Source of the DNA: a virus | Lineage: Duplodnaviria; Caudoviricetes | Length of the DNA stretch: 64,000 nt | IMG/VR virus record: IMGVR_UViG_3300014697_000001 | Coordinates: 32,001-96,000 of that record | Strand: one strand, 5' to 3' | Shown: positions 33,622 to 50,080 of the stretch, in pieces | Numbering within the stretch: the stretch's first letter is position 1 | Layout: every line of letters begins with the position of its first letter | Position numbers and translations under genes: made by a program | Notes under the pieces: model-generated | What the model was told of the DNA's origin: nothing | Database searches by the model: none | What the model saw: the letters and a program-made list of their open reading frames with translations, nothing else

Positions 33622-33819
33622 CCGTAATTCGGCGTCCTGCGGGGCGCCGTTTTATGCCGCATGTCAAAATAGGAGACGTTATGACTGCATCAACCCCCAC
33701 GATGAAGTGGAGGCTAGGGTCTTTAAAGTCGAACAGATAACGGTCATTCGCGAGTACATGCTTTAATCCGTCAAAGAAAACGAATACACCATCATGTATG
33801 TTTAGTCAAGGAGTGTAAC

Positions 33820-34626
33820 ATGTCAGATTACCACGGAGCCGCCACTCGTTCGATAGACCCTGATACCTTCGCGCATTACGACGGCGAGACATGGTGGCGT
33901 CAGCTACGAGATGCGGTGATCAACGAAGAGAACTCTCGGGCACTGTGTCTGATCGACAGCCTGCCTCAGAGTCTGAAGTACCTCAAGCATGTGGGTCAGA
34001 CCCACGTGATTGTTGAGCATCCGGACCACATGACCGAAGACATGGTCGATGCCACCCGCAGTCTGCTGCTTTACACCGATACTTTCAGTACGCATGACGC
34101 GGCGCACATCCGTGAATTGCTCAGCATGCGCGGTTGGACCAAGCGTCATCTACCTGAGTGGTTCCAGACCTACGAAGGACATCTGACCAAAGCTGCTCGT
34201 GCGTCACTGGCGTATCACCTGACCATCATGGCGGCGATTGACCCACCTAAACCTGAAGAGCGGCACTTCCCCAAGGCCAGCACGAAGAAACCGCGACCGG
34301 GCGAGCAGCGCCTGTGGATCACTATCCGTGACACCAACAGCACCAAGGAACTGTGTTTCGGATGGGCCTATGAAACCAGCATCCTCTCCAACAAAGCTGA
34401 GGTACTGGATGTTCAGATCAACCGTCATCAACTGCCTGAAGACTGGCGGCATTACTTCAAGAAGCAGGCCATCGATGTCAGCGCTCGTGTCAGCAAAGGC
34501 GAGGACAATCTCTACCGCATCGAGCACCATAAAGCGCGCATGGGTGTCAAAGATGGATTCGCCCAGTGGCTGGAGATCGAAATCGACGATGGGGTCGAAC
34601 GTTATAAACGGGAGAGTAACCAATGA
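33820..34626 (+). CDS. hypothetical protein
   Basis: AAGGAG SD; 268 aa. Confidence 0.8.
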   Translation: MSDYHGAATRSIDPDTFAHYDGETWWRQLRDAVINEENSRALCLIDSLPQSLKYLKHVGQTHVIVEHPDHMTEDMVDATRSLLLYTDTFSTHDAAHIRELLSMRGWTKRHLPEWFQTYEGHLTKAARASLAYHLTIMAAIDPPKPEERHFPKASTKKPRPGEQRLWITIRDTNSTKELCFGWAYETSILSNKAEVLDVQINRHQLPEDWRHYFKKQAIDVSARVSKGEDNLYRIEHHKARMGVKDGFAQWLEIEIDDGVERYKRESNQ

Positions 34627-34901
34627 GCCGTAAGCTGGGTAAGAAACATCCTCAATACGTCGGTACGAAAGGACTGGAGCGTCTGAAACGTGAACGATAC
34701 TACTGGAACCATAAGCGTCGGCTATGGGATACGTACATAGTGCAGAACCTTCTGACCCATAATAGCTTGCGTGATGTCTACTGGAACCCACAATGTGGGG
34801 TGGCGTGCTCCAAGGGTATTTTTAAGACGCTGACTCCAGCCAAGCAAAAGCACTACGCTAAACTGGAACGCTATTACTACCGCGCCAGTACCGGCCGTTA
34901 G
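34623..34901 (+). CDS. basic hypothetical protein
   Basis: ATGA overlap, GGAG SD. Confidence 0.7.
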   Translation: MSRKLGKKHPQYVGTKGLERLKRERYYWNHKRRLWDTYIVQNLLTHNSLRDVYWNPQCGVACSKGIFKTLTPAKQKHYAKLERYYYRASTGR

Positions 34902-34957
34902 AAGTCCCCCCATGTCGTAACCACCATCATTTAACATCACCACCAAGGAGTGCTCCA

Positions 34958-36034
34958 ATGAGCCAGCATCAAGAACTGAAGCAGTACAACCGCACCAAGC
35001 GCGATGAGATGACTTTCGGCGTGTTGCCCGAGTACGTCCCCGCCAACCTGGTCGGTGAAGATGGTATCGGTGCCCGTATGTACGACTCCAATGAGATCCA
35101 CAATCTCATGATGGAAATGGATGCAGGTTTTGTCGGCATGCGTCGCAGCCTGATCGACAAACTGGAGAACGTCCAGCAACTGATCCTCTACACCGTGGCC
35201 GGTCAGATTGACAAACACGGCGTGCTGCGTTTCGCCACCTATCAGCGTGCCGCTGGTGCCGATGCTCGTCTTAAAGACGGTTTCTCCATCGGCTTCGGTG
35301 GTCATGTGGAAATCCCAGATCTCTTCGGTCAGTACAACATCACGCCCAATGGCGAATACGTTGAAATCGCCGAAGTGCCGTCGAGCTTCTATTCCACCCT
35401 TCGTTCAGGTATTCGCGAGCTGCAAGAGGAGGTGGTATTCTTTACGGCGGGTGATGTGGAGACCCCGTACAGCGAAAAAGAGATGCTGACAAACCTGGCG
35501 CGTGGCTTTGGTCTGGACGTCGAACTGGAACACATCGAGGTCGATGGCGAATTCACGGCTGAATTGCGTGAAGGTGCCATGGTGGTCACACCGCCTGCCG
35601 TTATCTCCCGCGATGCCGAAGCAGGCAAAGCATACATCTACACCATCCGTGAAGGCGCTACCCTGGCCGAAGTGTATGGGATGTTCACCGGCCAAGAACC
35701 GATCAATAAGGTTGAACCGCTGGATCTGGGTGCCAACGTGGTCCCCTTTGGCTTCGTCTGTGACCGCGACATGAGCAAGCCTGGATTCGTGGGCAATACC
35801 CATCTGGGCGTGCTGGCAATGTTCCGGGTAGATGCTAACGTCGACTTCAAGGTCCTTGAAGACAAGTACACCACGATTGGTTGGAAGACCAAGGATGAGC
35901 TGCGTGAGATGAAGGCACGCTGTGAGCCCTGGACCCAGTACGTGATCGAGCATCTGGATGCCATGGAAGCTCGTCTGATCGAAGATTGCAAGATCGATGC
36001 GCGTACCCAAGAGCTGGAAGCTAACTTTCAGTAA
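34958..36034 (+). CDS. Nudix-superfamily phosphoesterase (COG4112-like) with insertion
   Basis: YQR...DARL...SIGFGGHVE, GIRELQEEV and VGNTHLG. Confidence 0.75.
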   Translation: MSQHQELKQYNRTKRDEMTFGVLPEYVPANLVGEDGIGARMYDSNEIHNLMMEMDAGFVGMRRSLIDKLENVQQLILYTVAGQIDKHGVLRFATYQRAAGADARLKDGFSIGFGGHVEIPDLFGQYNITPNGEYVEIAEVPSSFYSTLRSGIRELQEEVVFFTAGDVETPYSEKEMLTNLARGFGLDVELEHIEVDGEFTAELREGAMVVTPPAVISRDAEAGKAYIYTIREGATLAEVYGMFTGQEPINKVEPLDLGANVVPFGFVCDRDMSKPGFVGNTHLGVLAMFRVDANVDFKVLEDKYTTIGWKTKDELREMKARCEPWTQYVIEHLDAMEARLIEDCKIDARTQELEANFQ

Positions 36035-36079
36035 TCTAAGTACTTGAAGTAGTTAGTTTTTACTGGCTAGATTATCTAT

Positions 36080-36925
36080 ATGTAGTAGCACTGTGACAGC
36101 ATTTAAGGAATTGAATGTTTCTGACACTCTCGCCATTACTGTCGATGTTTAGACCAGGTGCTCTGTGGCTGGCTCAACGGGTGATGAAGGCCTTACCGCC
36201 CACTTATCACTCGTTGGACCGCGGTCATAGAAGTCCTCGGGTCAAGGCAAGAGACGGTTTCTCGCAGATGGCGCGCACCTCATGCCGTTGGAGCATGGTA
36301 GGGTGGCGACCAGAACGCACCTTGAACTTAACTGACAGGATCTGGGCACTGTCCAAATGCCCCACTAAAAATTCCCTCCAAGGAGGACGATATCGTCACA
36401 CGCGGACCAGTCTTGGTATTGGTCTTCTTACTAGGACACTTGATGGGATATTCCGGCCAGATAACAGCCGGATGGTTTTCCAGTGAGCAACACTTTAGTG
36501 CACCAAACAACTCATTCTATCTCGAGACCCCGGCCATTGTGCTGGTTAAGGCAGTATTACCATACTACCATGAGATTGAACTGTACGTTGGAATTGATCG
36601 CGGTGAAGCTCCAAGTAAAGTAGTAAGTGGGCAGGTATTGAAGACGGCTCGATCTGTCGAATTGCACGGGTACTGTGGGTCCCGTAAGCATTTCTAGGTC
36701 GAGTAGCATAATTGGGCTACCACCACACTCCTCACCGATTAAGTTCGGCCATTGATGATCAGCGGATCATCCAAGTCCTACCACCCGTAGGCACCGGTAG
36801 CAAAGGTTACGGAGAAGACGGCAATGTACACAGCTCAGGTAGCCCCTGAGTGGAACCTGAGCGTTCCTTCAATTGTGGTACACCCGAGCTTCTCCAATAC
36901 TTTCCTTTATTTTTTTGTTTTCTGT
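36080..36925 (+). ncRNA. candidate large structured ncRNA (~800 nt)
   Basis: No convincing ORF; many local and nested long-range helices; ends in a U-rich tract. Confidence 0.5.
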
Positions 36926-36960
36926 AATTGTGTGTCTCTTTTCTATCGAGTGCACTCACC

Positions 36961-37254
36961 ATGATGGTTTCTGTTTCTCCTGCTAATCGAGTGGCGCCCG
37001 GTCACCTCGACAACCGTGAACGCTGGGTGGCTGCCCGCGTAACCGCCTCCCACCTCAACACCTTCTTGAAGCTGATCAAGAACGCCGATCCTGAGATGTA
37101 CAGTGGTGATGAATTTGAATCGGCCAAGCACCTGATGACCCACTTCCAATCCGCCTGCGGTGTATTTATCGACGCTCTACATACCGCAACCAGTGTCGAC
37201 CAACTCATTGAGATCAACGATGAGTTCTACAAAATGGCCTGCGCCAAGTCCTGA
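36961..37254 (+). CDS. hypothetical protein
   Basis: Phage-like codon usage; followed by hairpin 37258-37283. Confidence 0.65.
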   Translation: MMVSVSPANRVAPGHLDNRERWVAARVTASHLNTFLKLIKNADPEMYSGDEFESAKHLMTHFQSACGVFIDALHTATSVDQLIEINDEFYKMACAKS

Positions 37255-37359: not shown

Positions 37360-37527
37360 ATGAAAGCATTACTCACCGTAGTTGCGATTGTAGGTGTTTC
37401 GGCAATCTACGCCTGGAACTGTAAGGACGTCAAAGAAGTCCGCCGCCAAACAGCAGAGCTTAAGAAACGCAACGAACATGACATCGCTGAGCTGGCTAAA
37501 GTCGGCATCCATATCAAGAATTCCTAA
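37360..37527 (+). CDS. 55-aa signal-anchored membrane protein (not in ORF track)
   Basis: TAAGGAG SD; MKALLTVVAIVGVSAIYAWNCKDVKEVRRQ... Confidence 0.75.
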   Translation: MKALLTVVAIVGVSAIYAWNCKDVKEVRRQTAELKKRNEHDIAELAKVGIHIKNS

Positions 37528-49570: not shown

Positions 49571-49601
49571 CTGAAATACTTGTACTGTTTTTACGGTATA
49601 G

Positions 49602-50030
49602 TATGTCAGACTATGCATTTAAAGCATGGTCAACCTGATGCGCTTCACTGCGTAGAGCCTGCTGGGGTACTTTTTCCCTAGCCCAGTACCCGACTACCCC
49701 CTTAGTCGTGGTGCACCTTCGTGAGGTGGGACAATCCCACCTCACGTCCCTGTTCGTTGCCCTGAGTGAACTTGTCGTGATAGCTCAGGTGATTGTGGTT
49801 CCGCCTTCCAGGCCAAGGGAAGGTGGTAAACGATGGTGTGTAGAGTGTCGTTGCTCCACATCGCTGCAAGAAACACAGTCGGGGAGTTTTCCGGCTTTCT
49901 CCTTGCCTGTGGTGTCTGGATTGGGGTCCGCTCCTTCTCTGATTCAGACATAAAGTGCAGCCTCCAGTGATCCGTCCTTTCGAACGATTGGGCTGATCAC
50001 TGGGGGAAGTACTTTATTTCTTTTTTTTGT
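49602..50030 (+). ncRNA. candidate late ncRNA made of serial hairpins (~420 nt)
   Basis: TATG motif at 49602, about 9 consecutive stem-loops, terminal hairpin plus T run, no credible ORF. Confidence 0.5.
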
Positions 50031-50080
50031 TTTGCTGTGATTTCAAAATAACCCAGGGTAGGGTATGACAATCTTCGGAG

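Follow-up and report, generated by a model that had tools for sequence, protein, structure and literature searches.

The window analysed here is a 64,000-nt stretch of DNA, bases 32001-96000 of a single 250,515-bp virus record (IMGVR_UViG_3300014697_000001). Here, we explored a unit at positions 36079-36921 of this window. It carries two small open reading frames (ORF1 and ORF2), a promoter-like region at the 5' end and a folded RNA domain at the 3' end (Table 1). A previous reading, made from the sequence alone, had seen only shadow-like ORFs in this span and had suggested a large non-coding RNA (ncRNA). Our comparison with homologous regions showed that both frames are open in all 16 relatives, with a frame-specific coding signal. 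We consider that the unit is probably a structured bicistronic accessory mRNA, or moron, of a phiKZ-related giant phage similar to Pseudomonas phage pPa_SNUABM_DT01 (DT01).

After duplicate removal, 17 homologous regions were left, and they form two sequence groups. Group A contains the window, L018, L003, L010, L023, L020/L021 and L022. Group B contains DT01 (its counterpart region carries the locus label L001), L015, L007, L005, L016, L012, L013, L009 and L011. The frame of ORF2 is open in all 17 sequences, with a length of 98-117 residues, and ORF1 is open from the same start in all of them. By dinucleotide shuffling, the probability that a frame is open by chance was 0.005-0.09 per sequence for ORF2 and 0.05-0.18 for ORF1. 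Both frames persist across at least four lineages that are mutually saturated at synonymous sites.

The ratio of nonsynonymous to synonymous differences (pN/pS) was calculated from nucleotide alignments of five independent pairs. For ORF2 it was 0.69 in frame (binomial P = 0.0027), compared with 0.95 and 0.98 in the other frames, and for ORF1 it was 0.79 in frame (P = 0.01), compared with 0.96 and 0.95. The three sequences of group A that were aligned first have an ungapped ORF2. The ORF2 gaps within group B are of 3, 6 or 9 bases, with two compensating cases (1+1 or 1+2), and the ORF1 indels of that group are multiples of three. The gaps of the 3' region are of 1, 2 and 5 bases, and the substitutions there showed no frame effect. 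The codon-usage score of ORF2 was +0.08 in frame, compared with −0.56 and −0.67 off-frame; the long genes of this phage score 0.32 ± 0.14 and −0.59 ± 0.21, respectively. On the minus strand, no conserved frame was found across the relatives.

Because of this coding-type conservation, about 580 of the 846 bases are most likely translated, ORF2 very probably and ORF1 probably. The segment at 36698-36921 is the only part of the unit with neither a conserved frame nor coding-type substitutions. The sequence-only reading had itself named coding-type conservation as the observation that would speak against an ncRNA, and this is what we found for the ORF ending at 36697 and, more weakly, for the ORF starting at 36115. 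Its proposal of a large ncRNA thus fails for the greater part of the span, while it did outline a real unit almost exactly, and one with conserved RNA structure.

Table 1. Features of the unit and neighbouring genes (positions in the window).
Feature	Position	Strand	Description
Upstream neighbour gene	34958-36034		358 codons; Nudix note on the DT01 homologue
Promoter-like region	36057-36082	+	A/T-rich box ending TAC at 36057-36063 (−25 to −19); TATG at 36079-36082
Near-invariant 20-mer TATGTAGTAGCACTGTGACA	36079-36098	+	putative start site plus the first 17 transcribed bases
ORF1 ribosome-binding site	36105-36109	+	AAGGA, five bases ahead of ATG 36115; invariant in 15 aligned sequences
ORF1	36115-36486	+	123 codons here; 64-77 codons in relatives
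Compound hairpin	36276-36305	+	4-bp outer stem, internal loop, 5-bp inner stem, 7-nt loop with invariant GG
ORF2 ribosome-binding site and putative start	36380-36394	+	AAGGAGG 36380-36386, five bases, ATC 36392-36394
ORF2	36392-36697	+	101 codons
Proximal 3' domain	36698-36798	+	hairpins 36703-36720, 36735-36748, 36754-36771, 36777-36791
Terminal branched element	36799-36921	+	outer helix, stem 36811-36817/36889-36895, two inner hairpins, U-rich tail
Downstream neighbour gene (dn)	starts 36961		97 codons

The beginning of ORF2 is unusual. An ATC stands 4-9 bases behind the GGAG core of a ribosome-binding site (RBS) in all 17 sequences, and in L015 a stop codon lies immediately ahead of it. The nearest ATG, GTG or TTG is 7-10 codons downstream, at positions that vary among the sequences and without a binding site. 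A conserved codon at RBS spacing, with no canonical start nearby, is the pattern of a near-cognate AUH start, and we infer that translation of ORF2 initiates at the AUC at 36392. ORF2 is also the only frame of at least 80 codons in this genome that has an AUH start (ATC, ATT or ATA) and a strong site without an upstream in-frame canonical start. Because the start is ATC in all 17 sequences, ORF2 has been called only in truncated versions. The public calls of the protein are all N-terminally cut, and the program-made ORF list of the window contains only 36413-36697. The RBS of ORF2 lies partly inside a mini-hairpin, and the same design was found at other genes of this phage (37339-37362 and 37534-37558, with starts at 37360 and 37555).

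Initiation at AUC amounts to about 1-2% of that at AUG and is discriminated by initiation factor 3 (IF3) (PMC5499595). The start of ORF2 resembles those of bacterial infC (AUU or AUC) and Escherichia coli pcnB, in which a strong RBS at normal spacing precedes an AUH codon conserved across relatives. By analogy, a conserved AUH start implies initiation that is deliberately low or sensitive to IF3. However, ORF2 is a phage accessory gene for a small protein that is predicted to be exported, not a gene for a translation factor, and nothing suggests an autoregulatory loop for it. Outside the window, a 90-codon frame on the minus strand begins with CTG directly behind AAGGAG (genome position 176676). 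It has no upstream in-frame canonical start and is a possible second non-canonical start of this phage.

In the ORF2 product, residue 4 is basic; a hydrophobic stretch of about 14 residues comes next, and after it a part of about 75 residues without a known fold. In an alignment read by eye, every sequence has a basic residue among its first five positions, and a hydrophobic core as well. A Sec-type signal peptide would have a basic n-region, 10-15 hydrophobic residues and small residues at −3 and −1 of a cleavage site; a site of the A-x-A type is evident by eye in group B and indistinct in group A. The N-terminus is signal-peptide-like and may be a signal peptide or a membrane anchor; if so, ORF2 would most likely act at the host envelope. 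Deep protein searches (1.8-5.8 billion proteins) returned 6-8 proteins, all of them N-terminally truncated calls from this phage clade, and therefore ORF2 has no wider family. No match was found when the ORF2 proteins were compared with phage isolates by tblastn. In the Pfam and PHROG searches with ORF1 and ORF2, one sub-threshold match to DUF3325 was taken as chance. In the GenBank annotation of DT01, the ORF2 counterpart (L001 7201-7527, with an ATC start) and the structured 3' domain lie in an unannotated 640-bp gap (L001:7161-7800, bases 250160-250799 of the DT01 record).

ORF1 begins with ATG or GTG, 5-6 bases after the invariant AAGGA, and is among the called genes of four metagenome contigs and of DT01 (PA10_00292). 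In the window it has one base fewer at about 36319 than in the closest relative, L018. Because of this missing base, the usual stop near 36334-36340 is skipped here, and the frame extends 95 nt into ORF2. An overlap of the two ORFs is found only in the window.

A compound hairpin is retained in all relatives, and it always lies inside the 3' end of ORF1. We found that 98.3% of the alignment cells at its paired positions are paired, compared with 25-43% for slid partners. Of its nine pairs, four have changed on both sides, and its covariation score was reached in none of 500 shuffles. These stem changes alter residues of ORF1, and group A alone reads the hairpin in three frames. The stop position of ORF1 is kept although the frame shifts over the hairpin.

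The second region of conserved structure is the 3' domain at 36698-36921. Its terminal element contains 36 pairs, of which 93.7% are paired across the seven group A sequences, compared with 36-54% with slid partners. Both sides have changed in 14 of these 36 pairs (shuffles, 4.2 ± 1.7; slid controls, 1-4). In the entire 3' domain, compensatory change was found in 19 of the 59 predicted pairs; the statistics for this domain come from seven sequences, and one alignment served both to derive the structure and to test it. In the proximal part, the hairpin at 36754-36771 has four pairs changed on both sides in the consensus fold of the group A sequences. The hairpin at 36735-36748 is kept in both groups and has changed in a compensatory way in L001 and L015. 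This part of the domain is perhaps closed by a long-range helix that pairs about 36716-36721 with about 36793-36798.

A covariance model built from group A detected one copy in the genome and matched all group B counterparts (E-values from 2e-6 to 0.06). Two weak matches (L008 5101-5163 and L007 10658-10721) are short and like ordinary terminators, and they were not regarded as copies. In all relatives, a T-rich tail (reaching 36921 in the window) comes after the stem 36811-36817/36889-36895 and the outer helix, and this is the form of an intrinsic terminator. The terminal element is therefore predicted from its sequence to serve as the terminator of the unit. It escaped a simple terminator scanner, since about 70 nt of inner hairpins lie within the stem.

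We also calculated the folding energy of the span relative to shuffled sequences. Over the whole span, 20 shuffles gave z = −2.5 for the plus strand and z = −4.25 for the minus strand. When the plus strand was divided (100 shuffles), z was −1.86 for 36079-36391, −0.32 for 36392-36697 and −3.03 for 36698-36910. In 40 pieces of 310 nt taken at random from this genome, the mean z was −0.93 (sd 1.2), and therefore the excess folding is limited to the last 210 nt or so. The sequence-only reading had described about 800 nt as highly structured, which holds for this last part and does not hold for the ORF2 part. It had also argued that G-U pairs favour the plus strand. Such pairs are indeed kept in covarying helices, and together with the terminator, the RBSs and the ORFs they back the plus strand, while the folding energy is not biased toward it. 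All eleven helix pairs that it listed are present where it had placed them, and a T-run at about 36905-36921 ends the span as it had said. However, the helices it had drawn within group A ORF2 (36363/36494, 36405/36418 and 36452/36467) are uncompensated in L003 and L010.

The folded elements match no described RNA family. The sequence-only reading could assign no class, and Rfam gave no match over the whole window at the gathering score. With E-values up to 10, a search of 35900-37100 returned three chance-level fragments of snoRNA and MS2 models (12-13 bits). None of the Rfam 15 models of described large structured RNAs (GOLLD, ROOL, OLE, HEARO, group I and II introns, and others) reached its gathering threshold. 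The unit is like GOLLD and ROOL in its overall length, its location in a phage, its many helices and its lack of a known function. It differs from them in that conserved frames with a coding signal fill two-thirds of it, and only the 3' 200 nt or so are like a structured ncRNA.

At the 5' end, the A/T-rich box and the TATG are retained in all relatives with the same spacing. The giant phage DT01 is related to phiKZ and encodes virion and non-virion RNA polymerases of the phiKZ type (PMC8541153). Late promoters of phiKZ consist of TATG, the G of which is the start site, and middle promoters have an additional AAanTTACc box centred near −24 (PMC4666361). The region at 36057-36082 matches this middle/late type (that of the non-virion RNA polymerase) at the level of sequence, with a TATG and, about 23 bases upstream, an A/T-rich box ending in TAC. 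By analogy with the phiKZ promoters, the G at 36082 may be the transcription start. The layout of box plus TATG occurs at six sites in this genome. However, phiKZ late promoters have no conserved downstream sequence, whereas here near-invariance extends over the 16 bases behind TATG as well; these may serve as a 5' binding site or as a downstream element of the promoter.

The resulting 20-mer, TATGTAGTAGCACTGTGACA, occurs once in the 250-kb genome. After duplicate removal, 13 of the 17 homologous regions have it in exact form. The exact matches outside this genome were in six viral contigs, six metagenome contigs and DT01, always 0.9-1.9 kb upstream of a dn homologue. The other four regions, contigs found via protein matches, have the 20-mer with 1-2 substitutions. 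Within the transcript, no conserved pairing partner of the 20-mer was found. Pairing of the first 24 transcribed bases with other parts of the transcript did not exceed that of shuffled controls, and its targets vary. The idea that the 20-mer is a general promoter or a repeat was rejected, given its single copy and its difference from the early promoter and the common terminator motif of this phage. A Lachnospiraceae contig (L017) contains the exact 20-mer and shares nothing else of the unit, and it was treated as a chance match.

The distribution of the unit among relatives points to exchange between phages. In L008, which is otherwise a close relative, the counterpart of window positions 33622-36913 is absent. 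At L008:3800-4000, about 3.3 kb, equal to three genes plus the cassette, is replaced by about 150 unrelated bases, and homology picks up exactly at the T-run of the terminator. The dn gene of L008 is the closest among the first loci (88% amino-acid identity). In the window and L018, dn is 98% identical at the DNA level, ORF2 85% and ORF1 86%. In the window and L003, dn is 57% identical, ORF2 93%, and ORF1 cannot be aligned. The high conservation of the stretch relative to its neighbours in some pairs is therefore caused by exchange of cassette segments rather than by extreme constraint.

In the middle of ORF2, two allele types were seen among the window, L018, L003, L010 and L020, and they are discordant with the relatedness of the flanking gene. 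The window falls with L003, and L018 with L010. This points to recombination within the ORF2 gene itself. Because of the mosaic alleles and the absence from L008, we regard the cassette as a recombination-prone accessory module, one that is dispensable and exchanged between phages.

Morons are self-contained inserts of promoter, gene and terminator, as in lambdoid phages. The cassette is like them in that it has its own promoter-like site and terminator, is flanked by conserved genes, is missing in a close relative, and has mosaic alleles and small genes of unknown function. It differs from them in that it belongs to a lytic, nucleus-forming giant phage and has unusually extensive conserved RNA structure and a non-AUG start.

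Our preferred account of the unit is as follows. The RNA polymerase of the phage itself would start at the G at 36082, aided by the A/T-rich TAC box near −24, and would stop at the branched terminator at about 36895-36921, so that an mRNA of about 830 nt is made. This mRNA would carry two small ORFs. ORF1 (about 75 codons in the relatives) would be translated through the conserved hairpin into a poorly conserved peptide. ORF2 would be a small exported or membrane protein, made in low amounts from the AUC behind a strong RBS. The obligatory weak start, the half-sequestered RBS, and the upstream ORF with its hairpin may together keep the output of ORF2 low and conditional, with ribosomes on ORF1 opening the leader. 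The 3' domain of about 200 nt would terminate transcription, and it probably also protects the message or binds a factor.

A dispensable and mosaic cassette fits a gene under conflict, for example in superinfection exclusion or host-envelope manipulation. T4 Sp is a small periplasmic superinfection-exclusion protein of a lytic phage. Compared by description, ORF2 is similar to it in design only, that is, in its length of about 100 residues, its N-terminal signal or anchor, its lytic phage, and its accessory and fast-evolving character.

Several observations weigh against a protein-coding message. Selection on the peptides is weak (pN/pS 0.7-0.8), and the codon-usage score of ORF1 is −0.12, which is not gene-like. 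In the last 25 codons or so of ORF1, the frame that is read differs among relatives. Searches of Pfam and PHROG with ORF1 and ORF2 of several relatives gave no family, and a profile comparison between the ORF2 proteins of groups A and B detected no similarity. AlphaFold2 modelling of ORF2 from a 14-sequence alignment gave a predicted local distance difference test score (pLDDT) of 48, a model of insufficient quality for fold comparison, with a low-confidence helix at residues 5-18. The features best conserved between the two groups are nucleotide motifs and helices, not peptides, and in both ORFs compensatory stem changes occur that alter amino acids.

These observations bear on the alternative that the unit is a dual-function or chiefly RNA-level element. 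In such an element the folded parts would be the main entity, and translation of the ORFs would mainly control folding and stability; it could act as a protein sponge, as a scaffold or as the source of a processed 3' small RNA. We consider this unlikely, and yet it deserves real weight. Only RNA or DNA motifs and helices can be aligned between the groups, with ORF2 proteins unrelated by profile; the stems covary at the cost of amino acids; and the 3' domain has its many compensated pairs. The shift of the ORF1 frame over the hairpin with a retained stop position is in the same direction. So is a 30-nt stretch at the end of group B ORF2, which is nearly without synonymous change and folds as a hairpin. 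Other local hairpins, also with compensatory change, are predicted in the ORF2 of group B. However, RNAalifold yields some helices from any alignment. Moreover, the signal-peptide design, the exact start context and the indels of ORF2 in multiples of three are found in all lineages, the ORF2 segment has no excess folding energy, and the 5' leader lacks a conserved pairing partner.

To us, it seems doubtful that the transcript is a new kind of dual-function RNA of nucleus-forming giant phages. The scaffold of such an RNA would consist of the 5' leader, the hairpins covarying through both frames and the 200-nt 3' domain. This scaffold would act itself, for example by binding a host or phage protein or by giving a stable 3' RNA, and would be translated at a trickle from the AUC. 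It stays a live alternative because conservation is at least as strong in the RNA features as in the peptides.

The hok/mok/sok systems are type I toxin mRNAs with a leader frame, a frame with a hydrophobic N-terminus, a structured message and very weak translation. The unit has an upstream leader frame, overlapping in this window with a frame for a hydrophobic N-terminus, a very weak predicted start codon, and a heavily structured message with a complex 3' end. ORF2 could thus be a near-silent, membrane-damaging protein, the translation of which is permitted by the ORF1 leader. Such a repressed toxin is improbable here. Toxins of this kind have fewer than about 60 residues, an overlapping leader, fold-back pairing and an antisense RNA, whereas ORF2, with 98-117 residues and a cleavable-looking signal peptide in group B, is unlike a short pore-forming peptide. 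In most relatives the two frames are separate, and fold-back pairing between the 5' and 3' ends was not detected. No antisense promoter or conserved minus-strand feature was found in a search that was not exhaustive.

A single ornate ncRNA of a new class, about 800 nt long and with ORFs open by chance, would agree with the many helices (some of them covarying), the z of the whole span and the lack of a known protein family, and it is nevertheless very improbable in view of two frames open in 17 of 17 sequences, a frame-specific synonymous excess, indels in multiples of three, a central 300 nt that folds no better than shuffled sequence, helices within ORF2 that are uncompensated in two relatives, and no Rfam match.

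If the unit is indeed a structured accessory mRNA, near-kilobase gaps of giant-phage genomes that appear gene-free and hairpin-rich can be small genes missed by gene finders. A phage gene with an obligatory near-cognate start would be a clean natural case that could be used to study how very low translation levels are set in giant phages. The branched terminator of about 120 nt within a 3' domain of about 200 nt, and the compound hairpin in the leader frame, are two new conserved RNA elements open to direct tests. The unit also marks a recombination-prone accessory cassette, which probably acts at the host envelope.

For the genes flanking the cassette, the nearest isolate is DT01, with 53-67% amino-acid identity. 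When the span was compared with 50,697 phage records by blastn, nothing matched, and a search of the window for tRNA and tmRNA genes gave none. In L003 (2100-3136, minus strand) and L010 (3277-4000, plus strand), an additional 0.7-1.0 kb is located between the terminator of the cassette and dn. These extra stretches are about 71% identical to one another, and, judging from the gene calls of L020 and L023, a gene of about 200 codons may lie there.

Other recurrent motifs were seen in the genome. The 10-mer core TACATGATAG has ten genome sites, including 37311 and 41277 of the window. Nine of these are embedded in a longer conserved motif ahead of plus-strand genes, which is probably the early promoter of the phage. 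A separate recurrent 13-mer forms the 3' arm of strong hairpins that resemble common terminators. Finally, a second unit at 49588-50035 of the window opens with the same layout as the present cassette, a box ending in TAC and a TATG at about 49612-49615. It contains a 101-codon frame from a CTG at 49648 and ends in a T-rich tail that closely resembles 36895-36921, and it may be a sister of the present cassette.

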